From the NCBI GenBank assembly GCA_016215025.1, contig JACRMI010000010.1:12331-76330 (forward strand): DNA of 64,000 nucleotides, read 5' to 3'. A program made the translations under genes and the position numbers. The notes beneath the pieces were generated by a model. The model was not told the origin of the DNA, made no database searches, and worked only from the letters and a program-made list of their open reading frames with translations. How positions within the stretch are numbered: the stretch's first letter is position 1; each line of letters starts with the position of its first letter. Positions 23,170 through 41,216 of this stretch are shown here, piece by piece. The DNA comes from Chloroflexota bacterium. Its GTDB lineage: Bacteria > Chloroflexota > Anaerolineae > UBA4142.

Positions 23170-24483
23170 TTGAAGCCACATTTTCTCCTTCGGCGGTTGG
23201 CTGCATCGCTTTTCCTCTTTTGCTCGCTCATTCTACTCATCTCCAGTCGTCCGCTACCCTCAGACCTTGACGGTATTCCGTTATCTGTTACTCCGAGCGC
23301 TACCATTGCGCCCTCTTGGATTGAATCCAAGCAGGCAAATGAGTCAATGGTCGCCAGCGCTAGTTCATCGCGCCCTGTCATCGTGACGGCGCGTGCAAGC
23401 AAAGTGTCTCAGCTTGTTGGCGATATTGATTTTGAACGAAAGCAGCCCACGCTAAATCTGACCACAAGTCGATACAAATTACTCGCGACCGATCTTGGCA
23501 TTCCCTTTTGGCACAAAGACCGCACCTATCTTCTCTTTGGTGATTCGCATGGCGGCGGCAGTGGCGATGCAATTGGCTATACGTTTGATGCGATCGCAGA
23601 CAAAGATCTTCGGCTCGATTTCATTCACGATAGTACGGGAACTTATCAGCCGCTAACCATTCCCGGAATCCAGCTCGGCGATTATGAAGTGCCGACAGAA
23701 GGCGTCAGTGTCGATGGTCGCATGTACGTTTACGCGACAACCGATTCAATTCATGGCGAAGGTTGGGCAGTCATGGGGCGGTCGGTGCTCGCTGTGTCTG
23801 ACGACGATGGACAATCGTTCAAGTCCATCTACGATCTTTCGAAAGAGACCTTTATCAATGTTTCGATCGAGCAAGTCAATTCAGCCGATTGGAAGGGGTT
23901 ACCTGTCAAATCTGAGGACGGCTTGGTCATCTTTGGTTCGGGAAAATATCGCAAGAGTAATGTCTATCTCGCTTTTCAATCCGCAAAAGATATCGAGTAT
24001 TCGCCCGCGATTCGATATTGGTCCGGTCTCGATTCCGCCGGACAACCGATGTGGAGCACCTTTGAAAATAAATCGCAGCCGTTGTTCGATCAGCCATGTG
24101 TCGGCGAATTCTCGGTGACGTACAATCGCTTTATCGATAAATGGATCATGCTCTACAATTGCGACCTGCCGAATTTGCGCGGCATCATTCTGCGGACGGC
24201 CGACCAACCCTGGGGTCCATGGTCGTCAGCGCAAATTATTTTTCATCCTTGGGACGACCAGGGCTATTGCCATTTTATGCATGCCAGTTGGCTCTTCCGC
24301 CAATGCGATCAAGTGAATGATCCGGTGAGAGAAAATGTTTGGGGCGGTGAGTATGGTCCTTATCAATTTAGCAACTTTGCCACCGGCGACTCGTCGTCCA
24401 CGATGATTTATTTTACAATGTCGACGTGGAATCCATACACGGTCGTCTTAATGAAAGCAGAGTTAGGGCTAACAGCGGATTAG
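23170..24483 (+). CDS. Secreted protein, possible glycosidase/sialidase-like beta-propeller fold (unverified)
   Basis: 437 aa. Non-ATG (TTG) start, so the start is uncertain. N-terminal hydrophobic signal, then LLFGDSHGGGSGDAIGYTFD. Confidence 0.45.
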   Translation: MKPHFLLRRLAASLFLFCSLILLISSRPLPSDLDGIPLSVTPSATIAPSWIESKQANESMVASASSSRPVIVTARASKVSQLVGDIDFERKQPTLNLTTSRYKLLATDLGIPFWHKDRTYLLFGDSHGGGSGDAIGYTFDAIADKDLRLDFIHDSTGTYQPLTIPGIQLGDYEVPTEGVSVDGRMYVYATTDSIHGEGWAVMGRSVLAVSDDDGQSFKSIYDLSKETFINVSIEQVNSADWKGLPVKSEDGLVIFGSGKYRKSNVYLAFQSAKDIEYSPAIRYWSGLDSAGQPMWSTFENKSQPLFDQPCVGEFSVTYNRFIDKWIMLYNCDLPNLRGIILRTADQPWGPWSSAQIIFHPWDDQGYCHFMHASWLFRQCDQVNDPVRENVWGGEYGPYQFSNFATGDSSSTMIYFTMSTWNPYTVVLMKAELGLTAD

Positions 24484-24517
24484 CAACGGTTCGCTTGCTG
24501 TTCGAAATCGTTCTAAC

Positions 24518-25543
24518 TTAATCTAACTCCGACCTTGCTGCGCGCGTCATCAAGTCCATCACGGCTTGGCGCGGCTCTTTGTTTTCATACGCCACTGCGT
24601 ACACTTGTTCCGTAATCGGCAATTCGATGCCGAGTGGCTGCGCCATTTGTAATGCGGCCTTCGCCGTCGGCACACCCTCTGCGACCATCTTCATCGATGC
24701 TTTGATCGCTTCGATATTTTCTCCGCGCGCTAATCTCTCTCCGACTTGATGATTTCGTGAATGCGGACTTGCGCACGTTGCAATCAAGTCTCCCATCCCC
24801 GCCAGTCCTGCCAACGTCAACGGATTTGCTCCGGCGGCAACTGCCAGTCGCGTCATTTCCGCTAAGCCGCGAGTCAGTACCGTCGCTTTGGTGTTGTCGC
24901 CGAAACCGAAACCATCGACCGCACCAGCCGCAATCGCGATAATATTTTTCAGCGCGCCGCCTAGCTCGACGCCAACCACATCGTCATGCGTGTAAAGCCG
25001 AAAGCGCGGCGTCATGACAATTTCCTGCACCTTGCGCGCAACGTCAATTCCGTCCGCTGCAACGACCCCAGCCGCAGGCAAGCCATTTGCAATTTCGCGA
25101 TGCAGATGCGGACCCGACATCACCGCGATTTTGTCGGCGTGCGATGGCAACTCCTCCGCGATGACTTGCGACATTCGTCGGGTCGTCCCAATCTCCAAGC
25201 CCTTTGAGCAACTCAATACGATTGCGTCGCGCGGCAAAAATTCGCGGACGTGAGAAAGGTTCTCGCGCAGCGTTTGCGCTGGCACGACAATCAGCGCAAG
25301 TTTGCATTCATCGAGTGCCTGGTCGAGCGCGTGCGTGACGGACAGCCCTGGCGGAAATTTCAAGCCAGGCACAAAGTCACGATTCTCGCGCTCGGTCTGC
25401 AATCGTGCAGCTTGTTCCTCTGTGTGTGACCACAACGAAACGCGTAATCCTTTTTGCGATAGCAGCACCGCCAGCGTTGTGCCCCACGATCCCGTGCCGA
25501 TGACGGCAATGCACGGCAAATCGGATAAATTGGGTGAAATCAA
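24518..25543 (-). CDS. gpsA: NAD(P)H-dependent glycerol-3-phosphate dehydrogenase
   Basis: IAVIGTGSWGTTLAVLL Rossmann motif and overall GpsA architecture. Confidence 0.9.
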   Translation of the reverse strand: MISPNLSDLPCIAVIGTGSWGTTLAVLLSQKGLRVSLWSHTEEQAARLQTERENRDFVPGLKFPPGLSVTHALDQALDECKLALIVVPAQTLRENLSHVREFLPRDAIVLSCSKGLEIGTTRRMSQVIAEELPSHADKIAVMSGPHLHREIANGLPAAGVVAADGIDVARKVQEIVMTPRFRLYTHDDVVGVELGGALKNIIAIAAGAVDGFGFGDNTKATVLTRGLAEMTRLAVAAGANPLTLAGLAGMGDLIATCASPHSRNHQVGERLARGENIEAIKASMKMVAEGVPTAKAALQMAQPLGIELPITEQVYAVAYENKEPRQAVMDLMTRAARSELD

Positions 25544-25736
25544 GGGTCATCCACCTTCTAGAATGGATTGTTCATCCACCAGTAACAACACTGTAAGCCC
25601 TACGACGATATGGTCGATTATGCCCGCCGTCACACTGTACTCCTCAGGACGTTTTTAGACTTGGACAAATAATCGTGCTATATTTGTTGCCTGAAAATGA
25701 TAATGACTAGGATTCGTTTCTCTTCAGGAGAATGAA

Positions 25737-27068
25737 ATGGATTTACTCTACACCTTGATTGGTCGATCCGCAGATGTGGCTGCAATTCATAAACTGGCTG
25801 GACGCGGGCACTCGGTTTCCGTCGTCGGCGTCAGTAATATCGGCAAGTCGGCTTTGCTGCGCCGCTTGTGTCAGAATGCGCCGAATGGAACCTTCGTCTA
25901 TGTCGATTGCAACCAGATGGGCGAGCGTTCGGCGCGCGCGTTCTTTACTTCGATCTGGTTTGCGATTTTGCAACTCATTCAAGCGCGTTCGTTATCGAAT
26001 GAGATCAAAGCGCGCGCGGCTGCACTCTACGATGAAATCATTCATGCAAGCAACACCGAATTTGTCACGCCGCAATTCGACGAGGGTTTTACGCTCGCGA
26101 TGGCAAACTTACCGCGTCCACTCGTCCTCTGCTTTGATGAATTTGACGAAGCCTACAAGCACCTCGAGCCGCAAACGTTTCTCAACTTGCGCGCGCTCAA
26201 AGATCGCTATGGCGAGGCGCTTGCCTATGTTGTGGCGACGGAACGCGAAATCACGCGGCTGCCTGCTACGCGCGAGCAAGGTGAATTTCTCGAATTGATT
26301 GCATCACACGTTCACTTTATGCATTTTATGGAACCTGCCGATACGCGTGTTTTTTGCAATCAATTTGCCGCCCAAGAAGGCGTGACGTTTAGCGAATCTG
26401 ATCTCGCATTTATTATCGACAATGCCGATGGTCATCCCGGTTTGGCGCAAGCTGTGTGTTGCGCGCTCGGTGCGGTGACGGGCGCGCCCAAGCGCGACAA
26501 AGACCAAGACCGCGTCATACACCAGATGGTGCAGTTGAATTTGACGACGGATTCCAACGTGCGTTCCGAGTGTGAAAAGGTATGGGATGATCTCGATCAA
26601 GATGAGCGCGAGGCGCTTCAAGTGTTGCACCCGACGAGCGATCAAGCCCAAATTGCGCAACGCAGTCTGCGCCACAAGTTTATCATTCGCGAGAGCAAAG
26701 ACGAAGTGATTATTTTCTCACGGCTCTTTGCCGAATTTATCCGCCAGCAAAAAATCAAACAGCAGCCCAGCGCCGGCGGCGTGTTTATCGACGTTGGCTC
26801 TGAGCGGGTTTGGGTCGATGGCAAAGAGATTGAAGGTCTGACGGATTTGGAATATCGCTTGCTGTTGTTTTTCTACGGTCGCATCGATCACGTTTGCGAC
26901 AAGTACAAAATCGTCGAATCGGTGTGGGGCGAAGATTACATTGACAAAGTCGACGACGCGCGCATAGAAAAACTCGTCAGCCGTGTGCGCCAAAAAATCG
27001 AACCGGACGCGACCAAGCCAAGATACTTGATTAGTGTGCGAGGACGGGGATACAAACTCGTCCGATAG
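25737..27068 (+). CDS. STAND/AAA-type ATPase (paralog 3) fused to a C-terminal OmpR/PhoB-type winged-helix DNA-binding domain
   Basis: Walker A GVSNIGKS, Walker B LVLCFDEFDE. The C-terminus (VWVDGKEIEGLTDLEYRLLLFF...ISVRGRGYKLV) matches the trans_reg_C signature. Confidence 0.75.
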   Translation: MDLLYTLIGRSADVAAIHKLAGRGHSVSVVGVSNIGKSALLRRLCQNAPNGTFVYVDCNQMGERSARAFFTSIWFAILQLIQARSLSNEIKARAAALYDEIIHASNTEFVTPQFDEGFTLAMANLPRPLVLCFDEFDEAYKHLEPQTFLNLRALKDRYGEALAYVVATEREITRLPATREQGEFLELIASHVHFMHFMEPADTRVFCNQFAAQEGVTFSESDLAFIIDNADGHPGLAQAVCCALGAVTGAPKRDKDQDRVIHQMVQLNLTTDSNVRSECEKVWDDLDQDEREALQVLHPTSDQAQIAQRSLRHKFIIRESKDEVIIFSRLFAEFIRQQKIKQQPSAGGVFIDVGSERVWVDGKEIEGLTDLEYRLLLFFYGRIDHVCDKYKIVESVWGEDYIDKVDDARIEKLVSRVRQKIEPDATKPRYLISVRGRGYKLVR

Positions 27069-27140
27069 TCTTGAAGTCAAATAGTCTTGTGATCAATTCG
27101 TCCGGCTATGAGACTATTTGATTATCAGACTACGAGACTG
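27062..27140. repeat. Simple-repeat palindrome, TAGTCT/AGACTA variant
   Basis: TAGTCTTGAAGTCAAATAGTCTTG...GAGACTATTTGATTATCAGACTACGAGACT. Confidence 0.75.
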
Positions 27141-27263
27141 GAACCGTCAGCCGGTTGTCAGGATTTTCAATTCATCAAGTGCTAGAATGCGCTCAGATTA
27201 ATCGATGACGATAAACGCACGTCACACGACACGCGCCACTCGTCACATTTTGAGGAGGACCCA

Positions 27264-27941
27264 ATGGCAAATCTATTAGAAAAAGTTCAAACCTTGATCG
27301 CGGCAAATTTGCACGCCTTGCTCGATCAGGCACTCAAAGCCAATTCGCTCGCCGTAATCGACGAGTACATTCGTCAGGTCGAGAACAATCTTGAAGACCT
27401 CGAAGATGCTACGGCGACGATTGGCGGCGAAGCGAAAACGCTCAAGCGCAAGTACGACGATTTTTCGTCCAAAGCCGCCGAGCTAGACCGCAACATCGAT
27501 TTGATGTTGAAAGAAGGCAAGGAAGAACTTGCGGTTGCGGCGCAGAGCAAACTGAACTCGACCGCGCGCTTGGCGGAAACGTACAAGCAGCAGTTCGATC
27601 GCCAGCAAAACGAGTATCAGAAATTGCTCGACGCGAAACTCAAGCTCGAAGCGAAATTGACGACGGTCAAGCAAGAGCGCGAAGAGATGCAGGCGCTGCT
27701 CGATCTCGCCAAATCGAAAGAACTCACCGCGCGCACGATGCAGTCGCTCGACAATTTGCTTGGCTCTGGCGATCAGGACATTGCCCGCATGGCGGAATCT
27801 ATTCGCGCCCGGCTCGACAAAGCGCAAGCGCGTTCCGAAATGCAAGCGTCGCGTCTCGACGTGCAGATGGACGAACTGCTCGAACGCCATACGCTCGATA
27901 CGCAGCTTGCAGAGCGCAAGAAGAAACTAGGCCTCGCGTAA
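27264..27941 (+). CDS. pspA: PspA/IM30 (phage-shock protein A / Vipp1 family)
   Basis: 225-aa all-coiled-coil protein. N-terminus MANLLEKVQTLIAANLHALLDQA is like the E. coli PspA N-terminal amphipathic helix. GAGGAGG RBS. Confidence 0.85.
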   Translation: MANLLEKVQTLIAANLHALLDQALKANSLAVIDEYIRQVENNLEDLEDATATIGGEAKTLKRKYDDFSSKAAELDRNIDLMLKEGKEELAVAAQSKLNSTARLAETYKQQFDRQQNEYQKLLDAKLKLEAKLTTVKQEREEMQALLDLAKSKELTARTMQSLDNLLGSGDQDIARMAESIRARLDKAQARSEMQASRLDVQMDELLERHTLDTQLAERKKKLGLA

Positions 27942-27949
27942 ACGCAGTA

Positions 27950-28017
27950 AGCAGTCAACAGTCAACAGTGAACAGTTTTCGGTTTTCTACTGATTACTGT
28001 TCACTGATTACTGTTTA
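27950..28017. repeat. Simple-repeat palindrome (CAGTCAACAG / CTGTTCACTG family)
   Basis: AGTCAACAGTCAACAGTGAACAG...TACTGTTCACTGATTACTGTTTAC after the pspA stop. Confidence 0.8.
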
Positions 28018-28034
28018 CTTTCTAGGATGTTCCT

Positions 28035-29231
28035 ATGAATCGAACTCGTATCATTTTCTTCGCCGTCATCATCCTTGCGCTGGTTATTGTCGGCGTTTCA
28101 TTTTTGGCGACGCAATTGAGCGGCGATATTCCGGACCCAATGGCGCAGCCCATTCAAGTTCGGATCGTCAGTGCGCTGCCGGTTGAACCATGGGTCAGCG
28201 ATGCCGCGAAAAAGTTTAACGCTGAAAAACGTACGCAAGACGGTCGCACGATTGTCGTGACGGTAACGCCGATGGACAGCGTGACCGCCCTCGGCAAATG
28301 GGATCGCGGCGAATTTACACCGAGCGATGGTCGAGGTGCGGTGCCGACGGTGTGGATTCCCGATAGTCGCTATCTGGTCGAACTGGTGAACTCGACGTAC
28401 AGCGCCAAGCTAGGGCGCGACATTTTTCTGACCGATGGTGAATATCGCGCGCGTCCGCTTGTAACGTCGCTTTTCTCGTGGGGCATTTACGACAGTCGCT
28501 ACAAAGTCCTCAACGACAAATTCAAGACCGTTGATTGGAAAACGATCCACGATGCGGCGATTGCAAAAGGCGGCTGGCCCGAACTCGGAGGACAATCGTC
28601 GTGGGGTTATTTCAAGTTGATCGTACCGAACCCGCGCAAGAATGCGGCAGGTTTGCTCGCAATGGTTTCGGCGGCGGGCGAGTACTATGACAAGGCGTCG
28701 ATCACAACCGACGATGTGACGAATCCGCAATTTCAAAAGTGGCTCAAAGAGTTGATGAGTTCGGTCACCGATTTTTCGTCGCTGTCGTCGTACACGGTTG
28801 AAGACCTGGGACTCTTTGGATATTCGGTCGGCGATGGCGGACAATTGCTCGAAAGCGATCTGCTCGTGAACATGCAAGGTATTCAGACGCGCTGGGTCGA
28901 ACCGCTCCGTATCGTTTATCCAAAATATCTGACATGGTTTGATTTCCCGTTCACAACTTGGATGGGACCCGAGACGAGCGCATCGGAAAAAAATGCGGCA
29001 TTGCAATTTGAAAAATATTTGCTCACTGCACCGATCCAAGCGGATGCGGCAGCGCGCGGTTTTCGACCTGCTAACACTGAAGTGTCGATTTCGGGCAACG
29101 AGAGCTTGTTTATCAAATGGCAAGGTCAAGGCGCAAAAGCGATTGTTCCATCGACGGCTCGAATGCGTTCCCCGGATCGTGACACGTTGCAAGCACTCTT
29201 GCGCTGGTTCGATCTGAACGTGGCGAAATGA
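28035..29231 (+). CDS. Membrane-anchored extracytoplasmic protein with a periplasmic-binding-protein-like domain
   Basis: N-terminal TM (IIFFAVIILALVIVGVSFL), then a 370-aa soluble domain. It is paralogous to the N-terminal domain of the next gene, and its stop overlaps the next start. Confidence 0.55.
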   Translation: MNRTRIIFFAVIILALVIVGVSFLATQLSGDIPDPMAQPIQVRIVSALPVEPWVSDAAKKFNAEKRTQDGRTIVVTVTPMDSVTALGKWDRGEFTPSDGRGAVPTVWIPDSRYLVELVNSTYSAKLGRDIFLTDGEYRARPLVTSLFSWGIYDSRYKVLNDKFKTVDWKTIHDAAIAKGGWPELGGQSSWGYFKLIVPNPRKNAAGLLAMVSAAGEYYDKASITTDDVTNPQFQKWLKELMSSVTDFSSLSSYTVEDLGLFGYSVGDGGQLLESDLLVNMQGIQTRWVEPLRIVYPKYLTWFDFPFTTWMGPETSASEKNAALQFEKYLLTAPIQADAAARGFRPANTEVSISGNESLFIKWQGQGAKAIVPSTARMRSPDRDTLQALLRWFDLNVAK

Positions 29232-30916
29232 GGCGCACGATGAAGAAAAATAAACGCAATCCCGCTTTTAATCGGGCAAACGGATGTGCGCTTCTGGTCG
29301 TGCTGGCAGTCGTCCTGGGAATGTTTGCCGTCTTGTGCGGTATTACGATATTTGCCTCAAACTTGAATTCGCTGACGGATGCGACGCCCGCGCCGACGAG
29401 CGCAACGCTCGATCTAGCGTACTCGCCCGAAAAAGACGCGCTAATGCAAGACATTGTCGCGCGCTTCAACAAATCGAATTTCAAAACGCCGGCGGGCTTG
29501 CCGATGAAGATCAACGCGACGAAGATGGACGCCGGCGACATTGTCGATGCGGCGCGCGCGGGCAGGTTTACGGCGGTCAGTCCAGACTCGTCATTGTGGC
29601 TTGCACAAATCGATGCAGGACGCGCTACGCCATTGGTTGGTGAATCGACGCGCTTTGCCGTGACGCCAGTCGTCATCGCGATGTGGAATGATGTCGCGCA
29701 ATCGCTCGGCTATCCGCAAAAGCAAATCGGTTGGCAAGACTTGTTGAACAAAGCAAAGAGCGATCCGAATTTCAAGTGGAGTCATCCATCGTCCACGACG
29801 GCGAGCGGCTTGCTGGCAACGCTGGCGGAGTTTTACGCGGGCGCAAACAAGACGCGCAATTTGACCGAAGATGACTTGAACAATCGCGCGGTGCTCGACT
29901 ATGTGGCGGCGCTCGAAAAAACGGTGCGTTATTATGGCGAGGGCGAACAGGCGACCGTCGATCAAGTGCTGGCGAAGGGACGCAGCTACATCGATGCGTT
30001 CGTCGTGTCGGAACGCATGGTGATCTTTTTCAATAGCAAGTCATCGCAGAAACTCGTCGCGATTTACCCTGCCGAAGGGACGCTGTGGCAAGACCATCCG
30101 CTCGCATTGCTTGAGCAAACAAATCTTACCGATGATCAGCGTTTGACGTATCGACGATTCCGAGATTTCTTGCTCTCGTCCGATATTCAGAAATTGGTTT
30201 TGCAATCGGGCTATCGCCCCGTCGATTTGAAATTGCGTCTCGACGATCCTGCATCGCCAATCAAAACAGGAAATGGCGTTGATCCATCGCAGCCCCAAAC
30301 GACGTTGCAGATGCCAAGTTCGGCGGTGATGGACAAGGTTGTAGCGTCGTGGTATTTGTCTAAGCGACCGGCGAACATTTATCTCGTCGCCGACACGTCG
30401 GGCAGCATGGCAGAACAAAACAAGCTCAAGCAAGCCCAAGATGCGCTCAATACCTTTCTCGATCAAGTGCAAGGTGATCGTGATCGTGTGGGACTCGTTC
30501 CGTTTGCGGATCGGGTCTATAACGTAGTTCAGTTAAAGGAAATTGGACCGCAGCGCGCGAGCTTGAAAAATAGTGTTAATCAACTTGGCGCAAATGGTCG
30601 CACCGCATTGCTGGATGCGGTGTCGTATGCATACGACGATTTGCAAAAGCGCAATGAGCGGGATCGCATCAACGCTATCGTCGTCATGACCGACGGTATC
30701 GAGAATGCATCGTCGACCAATTTGAACGCGCTGACGCAAAAGGTCAAACGCCAAAACGCAAGCGGCGTGCCGGTGTTAGTTTTCGCTATCGGCTACGGTA
30801 GCGATGCTGACTTTGATGTGCTGAATTCCCTGGCGGATGCAACGGGTGGTTTGTCGCGTCGCGCTGATCCAGAGACGATTCAGAAACTGTACAAGATTTT
30901 GTCGACGTATTTCTAA
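29228..30916 (+). CDS. Membrane-anchored PBP-like domain fused to a C-terminal von Willebrand factor A (vWA) domain
   Basis: TM anchor; PBP-type-2-like region (SHPSSTTASGLLA); C-terminal vWA with MIDAS DTSGSM...T...D (IYLVADTSGSMAE...VMTDGIEN). Confidence 0.65.
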   Translation: MRRTMKKNKRNPAFNRANGCALLVVLAVVLGMFAVLCGITIFASNLNSLTDATPAPTSATLDLAYSPEKDALMQDIVARFNKSNFKTPAGLPMKINATKMDAGDIVDAARAGRFTAVSPDSSLWLAQIDAGRATPLVGESTRFAVTPVVIAMWNDVAQSLGYPQKQIGWQDLLNKAKSDPNFKWSHPSSTTASGLLATLAEFYAGANKTRNLTEDDLNNRAVLDYVAALEKTVRYYGEGEQATVDQVLAKGRSYIDAFVVSERMVIFFNSKSSQKLVAIYPAEGTLWQDHPLALLEQTNLTDDQRLTYRRFRDFLLSSDIQKLVLQSGYRPVDLKLRLDDPASPIKTGNGVDPSQPQTTLQMPSSAVMDKVVASWYLSKRPANIYLVADTSGSMAEQNKLKQAQDALNTFLDQVQGDRDRVGLVPFADRVYNVVQLKEIGPQRASLKNSVNQLGANGRTALLDAVSYAYDDLQKRNERDRINAIVVMTDGIENASSTNLNALTQKVKRQNASGVPVLVFAIGYGSDADFDVLNSLADATGGLSRRADPETIQKLYKILSTYF

Positions 30917-30924
30917 TTTGAGAA

Positions 30925-30987
30925 TTGTCATTTCGAGCGAAGCGAGAAATCTGATTTCTCACTTGCTTCGCTCGTTCGAAATGACAT
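30925..30987. repeat. Hairpin repeat, TGTCATTTCGAGCGAAGCGAGAAATC...GATTTCTCACTTGCTTCGCTCGTTCGAAATGACA (family copy 2)
   Basis: Near-perfect palindrome between the vWA gene and the flotillin gene. Confidence 0.85.
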
Positions 30988-31013
30988 GGTGTATGTGTTG
31001 GTAAAGGAGGCGT

Positions 31014-32987
31014 ATGTCTAACGTAATTCTTTCGCTCACAATGTTGTTCTTTGTATCCCTGGGCATCATTGCCATTTTGATTGCGCTTTCTGGTTTTCGA
31101 TTCATACCGAACAATCGTATCGGCATCGTCGAAAAAAGAGTCAGTGGCAAAGGTTCGATCAAGTCCGGTTTTATCGCGCTGAACGGCGAAGCGGGTTATC
31201 AGCCGAATGTGTTGCGGGGTGGTTTGCATTACCTCATGCCGATTCAGTACCATGTGCATGTTGTTCCGCTCGTGACGATCACGCAAGGCAAGATCGGTTA
31301 CGTGTTTGCCCGCGACGGTAAGCAGCTTGATCCGACCCAGGTGCTGGCGTCGAATGCGACCGTCAACGATTTTCAAGATGTCGAAGCGTTTCTGGCGAAT
31401 GGTGGACAGCGTGGACCGCAGCGCCGCATTTTGCGTGAAGGTACGTATGCGATCAATCTCGTCCAGTTCGTCGTCATCACCGAAGAGCGCGTCTTTTCGT
31501 TGCCGCTCAACCGCGACGAAGCAGAGACCATTCGCAAAATGGCAGATGTTATTGCCGAACGCAACGGTTTTCGTCCAATCGTGATCAAAGATACGGATGA
31601 TCTTGTTGGGATTGTCACAGTCCATGATGGTCCGTCGCTCGCGCAAGGCGAAATCATCGCACCAATTGTCGGGACGACCGTGGCAAGTGCCGATACGTAT
31701 CACAATAATTTTCAAGATGCCGACAAGTTCTTGGCGGCGAATGGATCACGCGGTCGCCAGTTGCAGGTGTTGGTCGAAGGCACGTACTATATCAATCGAC
31801 TCTTTGCAACCGTGGAGATGATCAAAAAGACGATTGTCGAAGTGGGCACAGTTGGCGTGGTCGTGTCGTACACCGGCGAACAAGGCGTGGATTTGTCCGG
31901 CAAGGAATATCGGCATGGCGAGATGGTCGAAAAAGGCAAGCGCGGCGTGTGGAGTGAAGCGCTGATGCCGGGCAAGTACGCCTTCAACACGTATGCCGGC
32001 AAAGTGATTATCGTGCCGACGACGAACATCATCCTAAAGTGGATTCGGAGCGAGGTGGGTTCGCATCGCCTCGACGAAAACTTGTCCGAAGTTTCGCTCA
32101 TCACGAAAGATGCATTTGAGCCATCGTTGCCGCTGTCGGTTGTGATTCACATCGATTATCAAAAAGCGCCACTCGTCATTCAACGCTTTGGCGATATTAA
32201 ACGGCTCGTCGAGCAAACGCTCGATCCGATGGTGTCGGCGTACTTTAAGAATATCGGACAGACCCGGACGCTGATTCAACTCATCCAAGAACGCAGTATG
32301 ATTCAGAAAACCGCGAGCCAGGAGATGCAAGAAAAATTCGCCCATTACAATCTGCAACTCGAAGAAGTGCTGATCGGCACGCCCGCGCCGCCCGTGGGCG
32401 ACACTCAAATCGAAACGATCTTGACCCAGTTGCGCTCGCGTCAAGTGGCGACGGAACAGGTCGAAACGTATGGGCGACAAGAAACCGCCGCGGTCAAGGA
32501 ACGCGAATTGCGCGAAGCGCAAGCACGTGCCGAGATGCAAAAACATATCACCGAATCTGAGTTGAGCATCACGGTTCAATCGAACCAAGGCAAGGCGGAG
32601 TATCAACGCGCGGTCCAGCAAGCGGCACAGATTCGCACGCTTGCCGAAGCCGAATCCGAAAAGGTGGCGCGTATTGGTATCGCGCAAGCATTGGCGACGG
32701 AAGAGCAAGTCCGTGCGTACGGCGGACCGCAATTCCAAGTTACGCAGACCGTCCTTAATCGGTTCGCCGAAGCGATTCAACAATCGCAGGTGGATGTTGT
32801 GCCGCGTGTGATGATCAGTGGTGATGGTAAGCAAGGTGGTTCTGGTAATGTGATGGAAGGATTGCTCGCGCTCTTGTTGTCAGAACGAATGGGTGTGCAA
32901 GCGACGGAGGATCGTCAGCGCTCGCCTGAAGCCGAAGCGCTGCGCGAACAAGTGCGCGCAAGTTTGAAGACAGATAAACCCATGTGA
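31014..32987 (+). CDS. Flotillin / SPFH (band-7) family membrane protein (YqiK/FloT-like)
   Basis: N-terminal TM, an SPFH-like region, and a long Glu/Ala/Gln-rich coiled coil (EAQARAEMQKH...AEAESEKVARIG), as in FloT. Confidence 0.7.
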   Translation: MSNVILSLTMLFFVSLGIIAILIALSGFRFIPNNRIGIVEKRVSGKGSIKSGFIALNGEAGYQPNVLRGGLHYLMPIQYHVHVVPLVTITQGKIGYVFARDGKQLDPTQVLASNATVNDFQDVEAFLANGGQRGPQRRILREGTYAINLVQFVVITEERVFSLPLNRDEAETIRKMADVIAERNGFRPIVIKDTDDLVGIVTVHDGPSLAQGEIIAPIVGTTVASADTYHNNFQDADKFLAANGSRGRQLQVLVEGTYYINRLFATVEMIKKTIVEVGTVGVVVSYTGEQGVDLSGKEYRHGEMVEKGKRGVWSEALMPGKYAFNTYAGKVIIVPTTNIILKWIRSEVGSHRLDENLSEVSLITKDAFEPSLPLSVVIHIDYQKAPLVIQRFGDIKRLVEQTLDPMVSAYFKNIGQTRTLIQLIQERSMIQKTASQEMQEKFAHYNLQLEEVLIGTPAPPVGDTQIETILTQLRSRQVATEQVETYGRQETAAVKERELREAQARAEMQKHITESELSITVQSNQGKAEYQRAVQQAAQIRTLAEAESEKVARIGIAQALATEEQVRAYGGPQFQVTQTVLNRFAEAIQQSQVDVVPRVMISGDGKQGGSGNVMEGLLALLLSERMGVQATEDRQRSPEAEALREQVRASLKTDKPM

Positions 32988-32989
32988 GT

Positions 32990-33044
32990 GAGTATGGGGG
33001 TGAGGGAGTGAATTACTCTTCCTCACTCCCATACTCCCATACTC
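32990..33044. repeat. Palindromic element GAGTATGGGGGTGAGGGAGTG...CTCACTCCCATACTCCCATACTC
   Basis: Inverted repeat immediately after the flotillin stop. Confidence 0.8.
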
Positions 33045-33050
33045 TTACTA

Positions 33051-33872
33051 ATGCCTATGTCAAAAAATAACACCTCTATCCGCTCCCGCGCGTGGTCTGC
33101 TATTCTCTCGTATGCGATTTTTCGTTTCGAGAGTGCGGCGACCATTGCGCTCACCATCTTGCTTGCGTACTTTGTGCCGCGCCCGTTCGATTGGTGGCAG
33201 TGGTGGTACTGGATCATCGTCGGTTTGATTGCGGAAGCGCTTATCGTGTGGAGCAGCATCGGCGATGTGAACACGGGCGCGCAAGTCGTCGCCGATATGT
33301 TTCGGCAGGAATTCAATCCTGGGATGATCCAGAGCCAAAAGTATCGCGCCGAAGTGGAACGTGCGTTGGACTATCGCACGCGCATCGAAGAACTGATTCG
33401 CAGCAGTGAAGCAGGCGTTTTGCGCGACCACTTGCAATCGTCGACGGCAGGCATCTCGGATTGGATCGCGCAAATCTTTCGATTGGCGCAGCGCTTGGAT
33501 GCGTTCAGCCGCGATGAGATCATCAAGCAAGATGCGGTCGAAGCGCCGAAGGAAATAAGGGAACTAAAGGAAAGGTTGCTCCGCACAACCAGCGATGCGG
33601 TCCGCCAGCAGGCGCAGCGCACGCTCGAATCGAAAAAGGAACAGTGGGCGAATATCGAAAAGCTGACGAGCACGATGGAGAACGCCGAGCTGCAACTCGA
33701 CGCGACGATGACGGCGTTGGGCACAGTTTACTCACAGTTGATGCTCATCCACTCGAAAGACGACATTGAGGACAGTCGCTCACAGCGATTGCAAAAAGAC
33801 ATCGCCGAGCAAGTAACGCAATTGAATGAGATGCAAGGGGCGATGGATGAAGTGTATGAACGTAAAAGCTAA
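33051..33872 (+). CDS. Two-TM membrane protein with a long cytoplasmic coiled coil, unknown function
   Basis: 273 aa; two N-terminal TM helices and a heptad-rich C-terminus. It is co-oriented with the psp/flotillin block. Confidence 0.5.
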   Translation: MPMSKNNTSIRSRAWSAILSYAIFRFESAATIALTILLAYFVPRPFDWWQWWYWIIVGLIAEALIVWSSIGDVNTGAQVVADMFRQEFNPGMIQSQKYRAEVERALDYRTRIEELIRSSEAGVLRDHLQSSTAGISDWIAQIFRLAQRLDAFSRDEIIKQDAVEAPKEIRELKERLLRTTSDAVRQQAQRTLESKKEQWANIEKLTSTMENAELQLDATMTALGTVYSQLMLIHSKDDIEDSRSQRLQKDIAEQVTQLNEMQGAMDEVYERKS

Positions 33873-33902
33873 AAGCTGAAAGTGCAAAGTGATACGTGAT
33901 GC

Positions 33903-34286
33903 GTGAATCGTGAAGGCATAACACGAGGTCAATCGCCGATGAAATGGTTGGCGCAATTGTTTCAAAAAAGCCAGTCTGTATCGCAAGTCGATGAGGTCAA
34001 GAGCAGGGCGTATGTTGCATTCACGGCTTGGGGTCCCGATGGGGTGAAACATCGCGAGAGCAAATTGGCGGATGTTTTTCCCGATGTGCCGGAGGCAACG
34101 CGGTTGCTTTGGAGCGCCGAATTCAAAAAGATCGATAGTGAAATTTGGAATATTGTTCAGCGTGGGATCAGGGAAGGCAGCCAAAGACGATTTGCTCGCG
34201 AATTGCAGAGCAAATTTCCATTTATGAACAAACAAGCTCTAGATTGGGCTTGGTCATTAGCGAGTTATTACGCGATTCATGGATAG
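33903..34286 (+). CDS. Hypothetical protein
   Basis: 127-aa ORF with no recognised motifs; start uncertain. Confidence 0.35.
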   Translation: MNREGITRGQSPMKWLAQLFQKSQSVSQVDEVKSRAYVAFTAWGPDGVKHRESKLADVFPDVPEATRLLWSAEFKKIDSEIWNIVQRGIREGSQRRFARELQSKFPFMNKQALDWAWSLASYYAIHG

Positions 34287-34322
34287 TAGACTCGTCACTG
34301 ATTTGTCGATGGAGAATCGAGG

Positions 34323-34877
34323 ATGACTATGAAATGCCCTGTGTGCAAAGACAATCTTTTGCAAGCAACCGTTTTGGACTGGGAAATGCCAGCGTACAAG
34401 TGTGATCGCTGCGAAGGCGTTTGGATTCCCGCCAATGATTATTTGGCTTGGCTAAAGGATCAAGGCGCGCACGCGCATTTGGATCATGCCGCCGCAACAG
34501 CGTCGCCTATGGATGTTCCATCGCCCAAGTTTTGCCCAAATTGCAGCAAGGTCATGCGCCGTTTCAAAGTTTTGCCCAACGTCGATCTCTACTTGGATCG
34601 CTGTTCGCAATGCAACGGCGTGTGGTGCGACCAGAACGAATGGGGCTGGCTCGTCGCGAACAACTTGCAAGACAAGATCAACTTGCTGTTCACGCAACCC
34701 TGGCAAACGCGCTTGCGCGAGCAAGAAACGAAAACCGCATTGGAAAAAGTGTACTTGGAACGATTTGGAGAGGTGGATTATTCCAAACTCAAGGAAATCT
34801 GGATATGGCTAAGATTTCATCCGCAGCGCGGCATGTTGTTGGCATACCTGCAAGCAGAGAATCCGTACAAGATGTAA
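34323..34877 (+). CDS. Tandem zinc-ribbon (zf-TFIIB-like) protein
   Basis: Two CPxC...C(D/S)xCxGVW units (CPVCKD...CDRCEGVW; CPNCSK...CSQCNGVW). Confidence 0.6.
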   Translation: MTMKCPVCKDNLLQATVLDWEMPAYKCDRCEGVWIPANDYLAWLKDQGAHAHLDHAAATASPMDVPSPKFCPNCSKVMRRFKVLPNVDLYLDRCSQCNGVWCDQNEWGWLVANNLQDKINLLFTQPWQTRLREQETKTALEKVYLERFGEVDYSKLKEIWIWLRFHPQRGMLLAYLQAENPYKM

Positions 34878-34902
34878 AGGGTTTGCCAATTGACGCCATT
34901 CG

Positions 34903-34930
34903 TTGAAACGAACGGCTGTTGAGTACGAAA
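34903..34930. repeat. 28-bp direct repeat ACGCCATTCGTTGAAACGAACGGCTGT (copy 1; extended imperfect hairpin to about 34975)
   Basis: An identical 28-mer occurs again at 35541. Confidence 0.85.
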
Positions 34931-34995
34931 CCCGTTTCGCGGGTTTGCCGCAGAGTAGCCGTCGGTTTCAACCGATAGCACGCTGAAAGATACCT

Positions 34996-35514
34996 ATGAA
35001 GAAAATCGCAGAGTTGATCGGTCGTGAATTAAAGTGGGAACAGCCCAGCACGCTTAAGATGGAATATGAATTGCGTGCGGATGAGGAATTGGCTGCGACG
35101 TTGTGTTTCAAAAACTCGTTTGGATCCTTTGCGACGGCGGCAAGCGCGGATGGGACCTGGACGTTCAAGCGGGTTGGATTTTGGCAAACGCGAGCCACAA
35201 TTCGCTCGATTGGTGCAAACATCGATTTGGCTGTCTTTAAAAACAATACCTGGAGCGGCGGCGGCACGCTAGAGTTTCCCGACGGGCGGAAATATTTGGC
35301 AAACACTAACTTTTGGCAGACCCATTACGAATTCAAGACCGAAGCGGGCGAGAGCTTGTTTGCATATCGAAACATTGGCGGCGTGCTTCATGCATCCAGT
35401 CACGTCAGAATTGAGCCGTGTGCTGCCGCCATTGCCGAATTGCCGTGGGTGGTTATGCTTGGATGGTACCTCATTGTGATGATGCAACAGGATGCGGCTG
35501 TCGCTGCGGTGTGA
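34996..35514 (+). CDS. Hypothetical protein
   Basis: 172 aa, bracketed by the two 28-bp direct repeats. Confidence 0.4.
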   Translation: MKKIAELIGRELKWEQPSTLKMEYELRADEELAATLCFKNSFGSFATAASADGTWTFKRVGFWQTRATIRSIGANIDLAVFKNNTWSGGGTLEFPDGRKYLANTNFWQTHYEFKTEAGESLFAYRNIGGVLHASSHVRIEPCAAAIAELPWVVMLGWYLIVMMQQDAAVAAV

Positions 35515-35540
35515 TGTGCGAAACGATGCTAGTCCAATAA

Positions 35541-35568
35541 ACGCCATTCGTTGAAACGAACGGCTGTC
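35541..35568. repeat. 28-bp direct repeat ACGCCATTCGTTGAAACGAACGGCTGT (copy 2)
   Basis: Identical to the copy at 34903. Confidence 0.85.
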
Positions 35569-35599
35569 GATCTCGAAGTCGTCATGTGGAGGTCTTTTT

Positions 35600-36808
35600 A
35601 TGCAAAATATAGACATTTATTATGAGTCTATTCGGCAAGTTTACGAACAAATCATGAAATGGCCGAGACGAAAACAGCCCATACAAGAAAAAATTATTGA
35701 CCTAATACTTAGTGTGGTTGGTGGGCTCTTTACATTATCTGTCATTCCTATCTTGCCTGTTCTTCTAGTTGTTTTTGGTAGTCGGTTAGGTGGATCTCTC
35801 GGCACATTTACCTTAGTCGGTGCGGGCATAAAGACTTTCCTTGTTGTCTGGGGAGTTATGTTCGCAGGAGGGCTACTTCTATTCGTCCTTCTGTTATGGT
35901 TCAATGATAAAGTTGATTCACGCGCAGAAAAACCTACTGGACCACCACAAACTCTTTCTCCCGAACAACTGACGTTTATTGCAATTTACGAATCGTGGAA
36001 AGAGCTAAAGATTTATTTCGTAAGTCACGTTGAACAGCATGTGAAAAATTCCTTAACGGCATTAAGGCGTGTATTACAAAATAGACATGATCGGCTTTTT
36101 CGAGAGATACGTGGGGGAGAATTAGCATTAAGACGCGCCACCATCCAAGAATATCAAAGAGAAGAAGGGCTAATAGCAATATCTATGTCCGAGGATTTGC
36201 CGGCCTATATTTCGGAGTCCATTCATCCTAGCTTCCGTGGTCAAGTAGAAATTGCTCGGACATTTCTCCAAACCTTTGAAAAATATTCTTGGTTTCAAAT
36301 AGATTCTAATACTAGAGCAACCCTCCAAGCCTTGATATCGTTCTCGGAAAAAATCCCCTATCGTTTGAAGCAAAAAGAGGATTTACCTGTTGTGCTAAGC
36401 GTATTGGAAAATTTGAGCAAGTTCACTTATGCGTATTTACCCGAGCACAAAACTTATATGGACACAACAACTCTAGAGAAATTGCGGATGGATGGAGCCC
36501 AATGTCTGCAACAATTCGTTGTCGAAGTAAATAACGTCACTCCACCTTCGCGATTACAAAAACCTGATGAGCCCAAGACTCAATCACTACCATTTAGAGA
36601 AAAAATGGTGAGCTTCTTCTACGGTAACATTTTCCTGCGGTTTACTGCTTGGTTTGCTCTCATTTTAGTTCTTACTGGAATGGCTATATTTATCATCAAT
36701 CAACGCATCAATTTATCACCTGACGCAATGGTTACCCTAGTTATTGGTTCAAGTGTGACAGGTGCGGCGGCGCTGGCGGCTTTCTTGCCCGTCATTTCCA
36801 AAAAATAG
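35600..36808 (+). CDS. Four-TM membrane protein of unknown function, compositionally atypical (low GC)
   Basis: 402 aa. Two TM helices at the N-terminus, two at the C-terminus, and a cytoplasmic helical domain. The gene is about 42% GC against about 57% in the flanks. Confidence 0.5.
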   Translation: MQNIDIYYESIRQVYEQIMKWPRRKQPIQEKIIDLILSVVGGLFTLSVIPILPVLLVVFGSRLGGSLGTFTLVGAGIKTFLVVWGVMFAGGLLLFVLLLWFNDKVDSRAEKPTGPPQTLSPEQLTFIAIYESWKELKIYFVSHVEQHVKNSLTALRRVLQNRHDRLFREIRGGELALRRATIQEYQREEGLIAISMSEDLPAYISESIHPSFRGQVEIARTFLQTFEKYSWFQIDSNTRATLQALISFSEKIPYRLKQKEDLPVVLSVLENLSKFTYAYLPEHKTYMDTTTLEKLRMDGAQCLQQFVVEVNNVTPPSRLQKPDEPKTQSLPFREKMVSFFYGNIFLRFTAWFALILVLTGMAIFIINQRINLSPDAMVTLVIGSSVTGAAALAAFLPVISKK

Positions 36809-36832
36809 AATGTACCGATTGGAGATACCCAT

Positions 36833-37970: not shown

Positions 37971-37996
37971 GGCAATTTTCCAAAGTGCCTACCAAA

Positions 37997-38031
37997 TCGC
38001 CGCTAGGGCAAACGCTCTGGCGGCTTTTTTT
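37997..38031 (+). terminator. Rho-independent terminator
   Basis: GCCGC...GCGGC stem followed by TTTTTTT after the binding-protein gene. Confidence 0.6.
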
Positions 38032-38211
38032 GTCTGGCGCCGCAATTTGGAAAATTGCGCTACGGCAATGGCTTTAGTCATCCTGATACGTTTGTATCTC
38101 GAAATGACCCGATTGCCCCTTATATCGGATTAACATACGTGCTACAATTGTGACCAAACCCGATGGACTTTATCCGGTGCTGATGATGGCACTGGAATCG
38201 ATGCAAGGGGT

Positions 38212-38254: not shown

Positions 38255-38305
38255 TATTCTGCGCTGTCCCGCTAATCTCTCAAGGAAGGAGAGGAGGTTG
38301 TCCTC

Positions 38306-39418: not shown

Positions 39419-39421
39419 GCC

Positions 39422-41205: not shown

Positions 41206-41216
41206 TTGGAGGAATT

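Follow-up and report, generated by a model that had tools for sequence, protein, structure and literature searches.

In the 64,000-nucleotide stretch of Chloroflexota DNA analysed here (the window), a PspA/IM30 homolog is encoded in a conserved unit with three further proteins, PBP1, PBP-vWA and the 2TM helical-bundle protein CC2TM (Table 1). Unlike a variable island, the block behaves as a core locus that keeps its synteny throughout the class, and the module is widespread in Anaerolineae-type Chloroflexota. With moderate confidence, we read it as a Psp-type envelope-stress or membrane-maintenance module, in which outer PBP/vWA receptors would be coupled via CC2TM to PspA.

The conserved block and its proteins

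The first-pass annotation had described five co-oriented genes with short or overlapping junctions, and all five reading frames were indeed recovered where it had placed them, on the plus strand. The spacers from pspA through CC2TM measure, in order, 93 nt, -4 nt, 97 nt and 63 nt; the -4 nt junction between PBP1 and PBP-vWA is an ATGA overlap, which becomes +8 nt with the NCBI start at Met5 (P0001, 558 aa). The PspA, vWA, SPFH and two-TM domain calls also held on analysis by Pfam, AF2 and TM topology.

Table 1. Features of the pspA block and its surroundings in the window
Feature	Position	Strand	Evidence
STAND-wHTH candidate regulator gene	25737-27068	+	Pfam, PDB chain matches
Candidate operator, GTCAG-N6-GTCAG direct repeat	27146-27161	+	Read from sequence
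Inferred extended -10, TGcTAGAAT	27180-27188	+	Read from sequence
PspA/IM30 gene	27264-27941	+	ORF list
Stem-loop in pspA-PBP1 spacer	27942-28034	+	MFE -34.6 kcal/mol, z -6.1
PBP1 gene	28035-29231	+	ORF list
PBP-vWA gene	29228-30916	+	ORF list
REP-like palindrome between vWA and flotillin genes	30927-30994	+	Hairpin -32.3 kcal/mol
Flotillin-like SPFH gene	31014-32987	+	ORF list
Hairpin, right edge of flotillin insertion	32988-33050	+	MFE -36.9 kcal/mol, z -7.5
CC2TM gene	33051-33872	+	ORF list
Orphan LivK-like lipoprotein gene	36762-37970	+	Peripla_BP_6

PBP-vWA relatives were confirmed at 298 places in species genomes, and the best 80 of these 298 loci, all from Chloroflexota save one MAG labelled Acidobacteriota, were compared. 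Among these 80, PspA and PBP1 are encoded upstream in 63 of the 68 testable loci and CC2TM downstream in 66 of the 67 testable ones, while a LivK-like lipoprotein follows downstream in 56/60. The PBP-like pair thus belongs with pspA, as had been suggested, and is conserved with it class-wide. Order and strand of the block are preserved down to about 35-60% protein identity between orthologs; synteny stops on either side, and the flanks vary by lineage. The CC2TM gene lies directly 3' of the vWA gene in most loci. Since insertions of 0.4-5 kb separate block genes in many loci, with unrelated genes found at every junction, strict co-transcription of the block is not guaranteed.

The first gene product matches Pfam PspA_IM30 (PF04012; 2e-16, 60.7 bits against a cut-off of 33.9) over residues 1-216 of 220, and phmmer aligned its residues 4-220 with the Synechocystis PspA/Vipp1 structures 8qbw and 6zvr (E 2e-8). 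Its orthologs are 58-91% identical in the related loci. It is a cytoplasmic member of the ESCRT-III-like PspA/IM30 family with a predicted role in membrane remodelling or repair. The spacer between pspA and PBP1 folds into a stem-loop that matched no family in an Rfam search; the z-score of this spacer is below -3 in 28/46 loci, and the sequence itself is not conserved. The stem-loop is a candidate attenuator or 3'-end stabiliser.

PBP-vWA consists of a TM anchor (residues 21-39), an SBP_bac_11 domain (PF13531; 2e-14, 54.4 bits, cut-off 25, residues 62-330) and a C-terminal vWA domain (PF00092; 4e-20, 73.2 bits) with a complete MIDAS, whose residues D389, S391, S393, T459 and D489 do not vary among 13 orthologs. 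Its closest PDB sequence matches are the extracellular vWA domains of ITIH4, CLCA1, TRAP and alpha2delta. In PBP1, a TM anchor at the N-terminus (residues 6-24) precedes a divergent solute-binding-protein fold of type II, and the protein is 59-87% identical across the 80 loci. No above-threshold Pfam match was found for PBP1; a sub-threshold SBP_bac_11 match (E 0.016, 15.4 bits) spans the whole model, and PBP1 orthologs match PF13531 or PF13416. Foldseek, run on a low-confidence model (pLDDT 61), returned 53 matches at E <= 0.001, headed by the sulfate-binding protein 1sbp (4e-7); the best 50 of the 53 are solute-binding proteins, except for one that is an SBP-scaffold design. The alignment of PBP1 with PBP-vWA (BLASTP E 4e-6; hhalign probability 97.4%, E 1e-11, 302 columns) marks PBP1 as a divergent paralog of the PBP-vWA binding domain. 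Furthermore, each of the two proteins has one N-terminal TM helix with K/R on its N-terminal side, which places the bulk of the protein outside. The earlier description of a paralogous, membrane-anchored and extracytoplasmic pair with a PBP-like fold, the second member ending in a complete MIDAS vWA domain, is thereby borne out.

The PBP1-type domain also occurs in fusions. It is joined to Hanks kinases in P0402 (Tengunoibacter), P0437 (with zf-HC2) and P0452, with a hydrophobic segment between the kinase and the binding domain, and elsewhere to a trypsin-like protease and to vWA. WP_126581181 of the Ktedonobacteria falls in the PBP1 binding-domain subfamily (hmmsearch E 3e-41). In other Chloroflexota, domains of this type make up the extracellular portion of receptor Ser/Thr kinases. 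Neither the conserved block nor its flanks, in the window or the other loci, contain genes for an ABC permease or ATPase, and LysM, PG_binding and SLH wall-binding domains were not found in any block component.

CC2TM begins with two short hydrophobic helices that a Trp-rich turn (PFDWWQWWYW) connects, followed by a helical bundle of about 190 aa; the two-helix hairpin and the bundle were modelled by AF2 with a pLDDT of 79. The protein has no Pfam match and no detectable homolog of known function, and we regard it as a new family. Its helical bundle is probably cytoplasmic, and from position and topology alone, we propose that CC2TM is the membrane adaptor of PspA. The LivK-like protein is a type I binding protein (Peripla_BP_6, 6e-51) with the lipoprotein signal LAITSC, and its gene, usually the last of the block, typically lies 90-300 nt past CC2TM. 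In the window, a four-gene insertion specific to it (33903-36808) pushes the LivK-like gene away from CC2TM. No conserved permease or ATPase genes were found after the LivK-like gene, which may be no more than a separate unit next door. Transporters whose genes lie elsewhere in a genome can be supplied by orphan binding proteins.

Flotillin and other accessory insertions

The five-gene unit had been built around a PspA-flotillin pair, but a flotillin ortholog is present in only 3/80 related loci (L004, L012, L014). Together with the palindromes on either side of the gene, this distribution indicates a lineage-specific insertion. The block as first drawn therefore stands in part: the PBP pair and CC2TM are conserved with pspA, whereas the flotillin gene in the window is a recent accessory add-on. 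We take the REP-like palindrome, whose first 25 nucleotides (30927-30951) recur exactly at 53286-53310, as the left edge of the insertion. For the hairpin at the right edge, Rfam gave only sub-threshold miRNA models, which were taken as chance.

The flotillin-like protein itself comprises an N-terminal TM helix, about 240 aa without an assigned domain, a Band_7 domain (PF01145; 1.6e-16, 61.3 bits, cut-off 23.6, residues 274-482) and an Ala/Glu-rich C-terminal region. No Flot-domain, NCBIfam or PDB sequence matches were found for it; by eye only, the TM helix and the Ala/Glu-rich C-terminus recall FloT/YqiK. Other loci carry a stomatin gene, with or without NfeD (L007, L038, L063), or a PLD/HKD-like gene (L002, L003) inserted in the block, and SPFH genes have entered it at least three separate times. 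These accessory insertions include known PspA partners (PMC11237479; PMC8581546; bioRxiv 10.64898/2026.02.06.704340). The window also encodes a soluble double zinc-ribbon protein downstream of the block, the gene of which is absent from all 80 of the 80 loci.

Promoter, operator and candidate regulator

The pspA promoter resembles a sigma-70 promoter and carries a direct repeat of the OmpR type. The GTCAG repeat has an 11-bp period and overlaps the -35 position, its promoter-proximal copy lying at about -38 to -34 from the inferred start site, and in the related loci TGnTAnAAT or TATAAT elements occur about 21 nt past the proximal repeat. The pattern GTC[AG][GT]-N6-GTC[AG][GT] is found upstream of pspA in 45/61 loci (coding strand, within 400 nt), at distances of 72-399 nt, or 72-230 nt in all loci but one; only 46 further matches occur elsewhere (1.28 Mb, both strands). 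In L034, the only locus in which genes on the opposite strand break up the block, a second copy stands 288-299 nt upstream of PBP1, and this re-creation of the repeat before PBP1 argues for co-regulation.

The first-pass annotation had passed over this conserved operator and promoter, the orphan LivK-like lipoprotein and the STAND-wHTH gene. Of the 52 testable loci among the best 80, 30 have an ortholog of the latter upstream of pspA and co-oriented with it. In one protein, it combines a P-loop NTPase of putative STAND type (Walker A GVSNIGKS, Walker B LVLCFDEFDE; AAA_16, 2e-11, 45 bits; nSTAND1, 8e-7, 29.4 bits, cut-off 27.1) with a C-terminal OmpR/PhoB-type winged helix (Trans_reg_C, 1.7e-15, 57.2 bits, residues 368-441), and its C-terminus matches the PDB chains VicR, RegX3 and PhoB. 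This short protein of 443 aa showed no sensor repeats, whether TPR, WD or others, and since it has no receiver domain, it is not a response regulator. We consider the STAND-wHTH protein a candidate regulator of the block through the GTCAG repeats; this pairing is tentative, as the gene is adjacent in only 30 of the 52 loci and the candidate operator occurs also in loci without it.

Known PspA systems and the proposed mechanism

The arrangement invites comparison with several known systems. In B. subtilis pspA-ydjGHI (samGHI), pspA likewise comes first and is followed by membrane-protein genes. There, YdjG combines zinc ribbons, an NTF2-like domain and a TM segment, YdjH has a TPM domain, and YdjI is an SPFH protein. 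In both cases partners have extracytoplasmic portions, and the window lineage also shares an SPFH gene within the block and, downstream of it, a double zinc-ribbon protein. However, no TPM-domain YdjH homolog or YdjG-type protein was found in the window block, SPFH is confined to the few loci given above, the core partners are two PBP-fold proteins and the unrelated CC2TM, and the regulator is of a different type. The membrane proteins of ydjGHI (samGHI) bring PspA to the membrane (PMC8581546; bioRxiv 10.64898/2026.02.06.704340).

The E. coli pspF/pspABCDE system shares a pspA-first operon with membrane partners and an adjoining candidate activator of NTPase type, as well as, in the proposed logic, membrane sensors that bind PspA and so free the activator. 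The regulator here, in contrast, is co-oriented with pspA instead of divergent, and joins a wHTH to a P-loop NTPase of putative STAND type, not of the sigma-54 type. Pfam and NCBIfam gave no match to PspB, PspC or Sigma54_activat in the 10 proteins encoded at 25737-36808, and the NCBIfam PspA equivalog scored 36 bits against a cut-off of 243. B. subtilis liaIH-GFSR also pairs a PspA homolog with a membrane anchor (there LiaI) and has a regulator binding upstream, for which the block offers a candidate; the lia operon carries a terminator or hairpin after its PspA-homolog gene. Homologs of LiaI/LiaF-TM, Toastrack (LiaG/LiaF) and LiaRS were not found by Pfam or NCBIfam (the LiaH equivalog reached 27 bits, with the cut-off at 380), and unlike in Lia, pspA comes first here, the anchor last, and extracytoplasmic PBP/vWA proteins are added.

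Mycobacterial clgR-pspA-pspM-pspN likewise joins PspA to an adjacent transcription factor and a lineage-restricted membrane partner, PspM being an integral membrane protein of this kind (PMC11237479). The parallel between PspM and CC2TM is functional only, no sequence relationship having been detected; ClgR has an XRE-type HTH, and extracytoplasmic PBP/vWA partners are absent there. A periplasmic-binding-protein fold is encoded with the PspA family in PspA/Snf7 operons that include an ABC transporter and a PBPB-OmpA protein (PMC11237479, section 18). Those operons have AAA+ ATPases, an ABC ATPase and permease, and OmpA, all absent from the block, whereas the binding domains here are of the SBP_bac_11 type, one of them fused to vWA. 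In the Ktedonobacteria receptor Ser/Thr kinases (WP_126581181), the PBP1 binding-domain subfamily occupies the same place after the TM helix, but the output there is a fused kinase, while here the binding domain stands alone or with vWA and the output would pass through separate proteins. In agreement with the initial view that the PBP/vWA pair lies outside the described Psp and Lia systems, the PspA neighbourhood surveys compared do not mention vWA or SBP_bac partners.

In the proposed mechanism, PBP1, PBP-vWA and the LivK-like protein would together make up a receptor or scaffold tethered to the outer side of the membrane, which may report a ligand or an envelope defect, with the MIDAS site binding a partner protein or a component of the wall in a metal-dependent manner. 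CC2TM would relay the receptor state across the membrane, and its cytoplasmic bundle would recruit or nucleate PspA at the affected site, a role like that of PspB/C, LiaI, PspM or YdjG/H. The STAND-wHTH protein, replaced by some other OmpR-type protein in loci that lack it, would bind the GTCAG repeats as a class-II-type activator, possibly restrained by PspA as PspF is, and the hairpin after pspA may keep PspA well in excess of its partners. The flotillin, stomatin-NfeD and PLD-like genes would be optional add-ons. More tentatively, the block may represent an undescribed kind of Psp system, with PspA linked through the membrane, via CC2TM, to a receptor complex outside the cell that consists of PBP1, PBP-vWA with its MIDAS and the LivK-like lipoprotein, and with STAND-wHTH as the counterpart of PspF. 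If so, membrane repair would be gated by ligand or contact, and not by membrane state alone.

Other readings of the block make different use of the same parts. PBP-vWA, with PBP1 and the lipoprotein, could serve as a structural tether that holds the membrane to the wall, a sheath or an S-layer through the MIDAS and does no signalling, with CC2TM and PspA strengthening the membrane where it is attached. We consider this unlikely, since the same type of binding domain serves as a Ser/Thr kinase ectodomain, a use that suggests signalling, a dedicated regulated promoter precedes the block, and no component has a LysM, PG_binding or SLH domain. The three binding proteins could also be orphan substrate-binding proteins for ABC transporters encoded elsewhere, with pspA in the same regulon only because the membrane, too, suffers under the nutrient limitation or ion stress concerned. 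In monoderm-type cells, binding proteins are normally anchored by a TM helix or a lipid, SBP_bac_11 and Peripla_BP_6 are families of transporter binding proteins, the top structural match of PBP1 is a sulfate-binding protein, and PspA operons with ABC transporter components and a PBPB-OmpA protein have been reported (PMC11237479). Such scavenging of nutrients or ions is nevertheless decidedly unlikely: permease and ATPase genes are missing in and beside the block in all loci, transporters are not built with such a binding domain fused to a MIDAS vWA, to kinases or to a protease, and CC2TM is left without explanation.

That the genes are independent neighbours, kept together by descent in one class and sharing no function, would fit the near-exclusive origin of the 80 loci from one phylum and the tolerance of unrelated insertions at every junction. 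Retention of order and strand down to 35-50% protein identity while both flanks differ by lineage, duplication of the operator before PBP1 exactly at the opposite-strand interruption in L034, and the repeated insertion of known PspA partners make this very improbable. An anti-phage or conflict system, in which an nSTAND NTPase and a vWA protein act with PspA as membrane effector or protector, is hardly credible, even though the STAND-wHTH protein scores above the nSTAND1 cut-off and a text search returned conflict-system papers on multicellular bacteria in which the term vWA is frequent (PMC7159879). PADLOC gave only weak coiled-coil PspA-JetC matches and a 0.005 CARF match, the vWA domain lies outside the cytoplasm, the NTPase is joined to a DNA-binding wHTH but to no effector domain, and the class-wide locus is not a variable island.

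The targeting of PspA/IM30/Vipp1 proteins in place and time is still being worked out system by system, for PspBC, LiaI, PspM and YdjGHI, and each known adaptor is lineage-specific. The block adds a fifth set of PspA partners, conserved over 80 Chloroflexota loci (the best 80 of 298), and most of its conserved partners are extracellular, with folds of the ligand-binding and adhesion types. It offers experimental handles in a defined operator candidate, a candidate NTPase regulator that is not of the sigma-54 type and a new candidate adaptor family. The textbook link between PspA and flotillin is here a repeated late addition and not part of the core, which helps in reading PspA neighbourhoods elsewhere. 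If the coupling to PspA is real, a cue from outside the cell, or contact with the envelope, could gate PspA-based membrane maintenance.

Domain content of the five-gene block

The first-pass annotation had described a PspA–PBP–PBP/vWA–flotillin–coiled-coil gene block as a candidate membrane-stress or remodelling system, and its five co-oriented open reading frames were recovered at the same positions in the window. The co-oriented, conserved block has one predicted promoter. Its products are a membrane-remodelling protein of the cytoplasm, three extracytoplasmic proteins of binding or adhesion type, all tethered to the membrane, and a hairpin-transmembrane (TM) protein. The junctions (93, -4, 97 and 63 nt) are short, as claimed; the 4-nt overlap at 29228/29231 depends on the start chosen for the third gene, which NCBI places four codons later.

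Features of the block and its surroundings, in window positions unless a locus is named
Feature	Positions	Strand	Content or match
DUF4185 gene and gpsA	23170-25543	+ and -	Secreted DUF4185 protein (+) and glycerol-3-phosphate dehydrogenase (-), upstream of the regulator
STAND-wHTH regulator	25737-27068	+	P-loop STAND-type NTPase with C-terminal OmpR/PhoB-type winged helix, upstream of pspA
TAGTCT/AGACTA cluster	27066-27139		Two forward, two reverse and one partial hexamer
GTCAG repeat	27146-27161		Candidate operator
pspA	27264-27941	+	Pfam PspA_IM30, 2e-16, full length
PBP1	28035-29231	+	No Pfam match above threshold
PBP-vWA	29228-30916	+	Pfam SBP_bac_11, 2e-14; VWA, 4e-20
GTCATTTCGAGCGAAGCGAGAAATC, two copies	30927-30951; 53286-53310		Exact 25-nt repeat
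Flotillin	31014-32987	+	Pfam Band_7, 1.6e-16
CC2TM	33051-33872	+	No Pfam match above threshold
Four-gene insertion	33903-36808		Co-oriented genes for proteins of 127, 184, 172 and 402 aa
LivK-like gene	36762-37970	+	Peripla_BP_6, 6e-51; lipoprotein signal
NiFe hydrogenase set	38306-43658		Small and large subunits, cytochrome b, HycI maturation protease
Alpha/beta-hydrolase gene	41950-42726		Interposed in the hydrogenase set
CBS-domain gene	43682-44143		After the hydrogenase set
PLD/HKD-like gene, locus L002	L002:4960-5997		PLDc_2, also NgoFVII N-terminal PLD domain
PLD/HKD-like gene, locus L003	L003:11987-12988		PLDc_2, also NgoFVII N-terminal PLD domain

The block holds a true PspA family member, which aligns over its whole length with solved Synechocystis PspA/Vipp1 chains. 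The complete MIDAS attributed to the third gene was borne out, with D389, S391, S393, T459 and D489 invariant in a 13-sequence alignment, and the nearest solved sequences to this vWA domain are the extracellular vWA domains of ITIH4, CLCA1, TRAP and alpha2delta. The second and third genes are indeed paralogous and PBP-like, as had been proposed (BLASTP E 4e-6; profile–profile comparison 97.4%, E 1e-11, 302 columns), and PBP1 is a divergent paralog of the PBP-vWA binding domain. Its SBP_bac_11 match is sub-threshold yet spans the whole model, and many of its orthologs match PF13531 or PF13416. Since the PBP1 profile gave nothing significant against PDB sequences, a structure model was needed; the AF2 model (weak, pLDDT 61) yielded 53 Foldseek matches with E <= 0.001, of which a sulfate-binding protein was the best, and the top 50 listed were all solute-binding proteins, save one design on such a scaffold. 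From hydropathy and the positive-inside rule, PBP1 and PBP-vWA are each predicted to have one N-terminal TM helix, with the bulk outside.

The AF2 model of CC2TM (pLDDT 79) consists of two short hydrophobic helices with a Trp-rich turn between them, followed by a helical bundle that is probably cytoplasmic. No homolog of known function was detectable for CC2TM, and its candidacy as a TM-bearing PspA/Snf7 relative was ruled out by hhalign (probability 0.5%). In the flotillin, the N-terminal 273 aa contain no assignable domain.

Conservation and inserted genes in related loci

We scanned the PBP-vWA alignment against one genome per species and confirmed relatives at 298 places, of which the best 80 were used: Chloroflexota MAGs labelled Anaerolineales, Caldilineales, Ardenticatenales or Thermoflexales, together with one labelled Acidobacteriota. 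All window proteins were then compared with these 80 loci by tblastn, counting as testable the loci with enough flanking sequence. As a result, pspA followed by PBP1 lies immediately upstream of PBP-vWA, in the same strand and order, in 63 of the 68 testable loci, and CC2TM lies downstream in 66 of 67, in most cases starting within about 250 nt of the vWA gene end, which leaves no room for a further gene there. The PBP/vWA pair and CC2TM are thus kept with pspA as the five-gene claim requires, whereas the flotillin member falls away, with orthologs in only 3/80 loci (L004, L012 and L014). A LivK-like gene follows CC2TM in 56/60 testable loci, and a STAND-wHTH gene precedes pspA in 30/52. Because the genes on the outer sides of the regulator and of the LivK-like gene vary between lineages, conserved synteny starts and stops with the block. 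The four core genes (pspA, PBP1, PBP-vWA and CC2TM) probably form one functional unit.

Complete blocks at 73-78% identity also occur in L008 (JBLMXX010000534.1, the Acidobacteriota-labelled contig) and L003 (DYJA01000052.1, labelled Candidatus Aquidulcis, Limnocylindria); these off-label contigs were probably binned or labelled wrongly and do not point to real spread of the block.

The block junctions accept inserted genes. The flotillin of the window and of L004, L012 and L014 is one such insertion, and a PLD/HKD-like gene occupies the same vWA–CC2TM junction in L002 and L003. Others are a TPR, zinc-ribbon, multi-TM protein (L038, L041, L056), a stomatin after CC2TM (L007, L038, L063; two of these loci add NfeD), a DUF4230 membrane protein between PBP1 and PBP-vWA (L047, L050, L069), a YbjQ-family protein between pspA and PBP1 (L021, L030, L046) and small toxin–antitoxin-like genes. 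The block has thus gained SPFH genes on at least three occasions, which involved two insertion positions and two SPFH subfamilies; by a rough estimate, some 100 random inserted ORFs would include about 0.1 SPFH genes. Outside this block, both SPFH and HKD genes have been reported next to PspA (PMC11237479), and the B. subtilis SPFH protein YdjI/SamI connects PspA with the membrane via YdjG/H (PMC8581546; bioRxiv 10.64898/2026.02.06.704340). This repeated SPFH entry supports the block being a Psp-type membrane system.

The four-gene insertion after CC2TM in the window has no counterpart in any of the 80 loci; its 184-aa protein carries two TFIIB-type zinc ribbons, which resemble the B. subtilis YdjG N-terminus at the domain level only, and its 402-aa protein is predicted to contain four to six TM segments, all hydrophobic. 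The LivK-like protein is an orphan binding protein: no permease or ATPase genes are conserved after it in other loci, and in the window the hydrogenase operon, which is outside the conserved block, follows directly. Neither the DUF4185 gene nor gpsA is kept beside the block in other loci.

Promoter, operator and RNA hairpins

Upstream of pspA, the window carries CCGTCAGCCGGTTGTCAGGATTTTC-N14-TGCTAGAAT, containing a direct repeat with an 11-bp period whose proximal copy sits at the expected -35 box position. Of 61 loci, 45 have the pattern GTC[AG][GT]-N6-GTC[AG][GT] on the coding strand in the 400 nt that precede pspA, at a distance of 72-399 nt (72-230 in all but one), with only 46 matches on both strands of the remaining 1.28 Mb. 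A direct repeat of such a period near the -35 box is the layout used by OmpR/PhoB-type winged-helix activators, as in pho boxes, and we infer that the STAND-wHTH regulator is paired with this operator. The operator is also found in loci without an adjacent STAND-wHTH gene. The gene directly upstream of pspA encodes a multi-GAF histidine kinase or a REC-HisKA-HATPase hybrid in 11 loci, suggesting a phosphorelay input to its promoter. Such kinase genes were seen in L048, L051, L055, L056, L057, L063 and L078, the multi-GAF ones being cytoplasmic, and in some cases lie between the STAND-wHTH gene and pspA.

The most telling case for regulation of the block is L034, in which a 5-kb insertion including opposite-strand genes parts pspA from PBP1. 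Here a second GTCAG-type repeat, accompanied by a separate TATAAT box, precedes PBP1 by 288-299 nt. L034 alone has such an additional operator before PBP1; none is present where the inserted genes run on the same strand. The TAGTCT/AGACTA cluster just past the regulator stop codon, which contains a 9-bp inverted repeat (AAATAGTCT...AGACTATTT), was dropped as an operator since it is not conserved in other loci, whereas the GTCAG repeat is; the cluster may act as a terminator or be a site particular to this lineage.

The pspA–PBP1 spacer of the window is filled by a long stable hairpin (-34.6 kcal/mol, z -6.1), and the z of the corresponding spacer falls below -3 in 28 of 46 loci, with differing sequence. 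A device that keeps PspA more abundant than its partners would fit this pattern. The hairpin matched no Rfam family, and an Rfam scan of 25000-38500 gave only sub-threshold miRNA-model matches on a hairpin, dismissed as chance. Strong palindromes flank the window flotillin on both sides. The repeat GTCATTTCGAGCGAAGCGAGAAATC is part of a long palindrome and looks like a dispersed REP-like element, one copy of which borders the flotillin insertion on its left side.

Proposed function and relation to known Psp systems

We searched the PBP1 profile against 1.84 billion representative proteins, of which 106 clusters scored E <= 1e-30. Some are stand-alone proteins of about 390 aa. The PBP1-type domain, of the SBP_bac_11 type, also forms the C-terminal ectodomain, behind a TM segment, of Hanks-type Ser/Thr kinases, in P0402 of the ktedonobacterium Tengunoibacter tsumagoiensis and in the JGI metagenome proteins P0437 and P0452; P0437 has in addition an N-terminal zf-HC2 (anti-sigma-type) domain. 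Further fusions join the PBP1-type domain to a trypsin-like protease (P0368) or a vWA domain (P0477), and it is found with zinc-ribbon or HEAT N-termini. Its use as a kinase ectodomain argues that the PBP1 subfamily serves in sensing and is more than a part of transporters; that the block encodes orphan binding proteins serving uptake is quite improbable. A structural tether rather than a sensor is unlikely. That the genes share synteny by inheritance and no function is very doubtful, and a conflict system, for which PADLOC returned no matches, is hardly credible.

With moderate confidence, we read the block as a Psp-type module in which an outside receptor or scaffold is coupled via CC2TM to PspA. 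The outside proteins would serve as that receptor or scaffold, the MIDAS site making a metal-dependent contact, and CC2TM would relay across the membrane and recruit PspA. STAND-wHTH would activate the pspA promoter, PspA may antagonise STAND-wHTH, as with PspF, and the pspA–PBP1 hairpin would tune stoichiometry. Each of these steps is less firm than the reading as a whole, and the four-gene functional unit is firmer than that reading.

The block lacks PspB, PspC and PspF, the defining partners of the proteobacterial Psp system, as well as LiaI/F, Toastrack and LiaRS, which define the Lia system. Unlike the B. subtilis ydjGHI set, it has no TPM domain, and its SPFH gene is not conserved. The first-pass view that the PBP/vWA components fall outside the described Psp and Lia systems agrees with two broad surveys of PspA neighbourhoods (PMC11237479 with its supplement; PMC9239133), which make no mention of vWA or SBP_bac partners, and a full-text literature search found nothing pairing either with PspA. 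In the nearest reported case, certain PspA/Snf7 operons encode a PBPB-OmpA protein together with AAA+ ATPases and an ABC transporter (PMC11237479), an architecture different from this one. We class the block as a lineage-specific set of Psp partners, including one new protein family.
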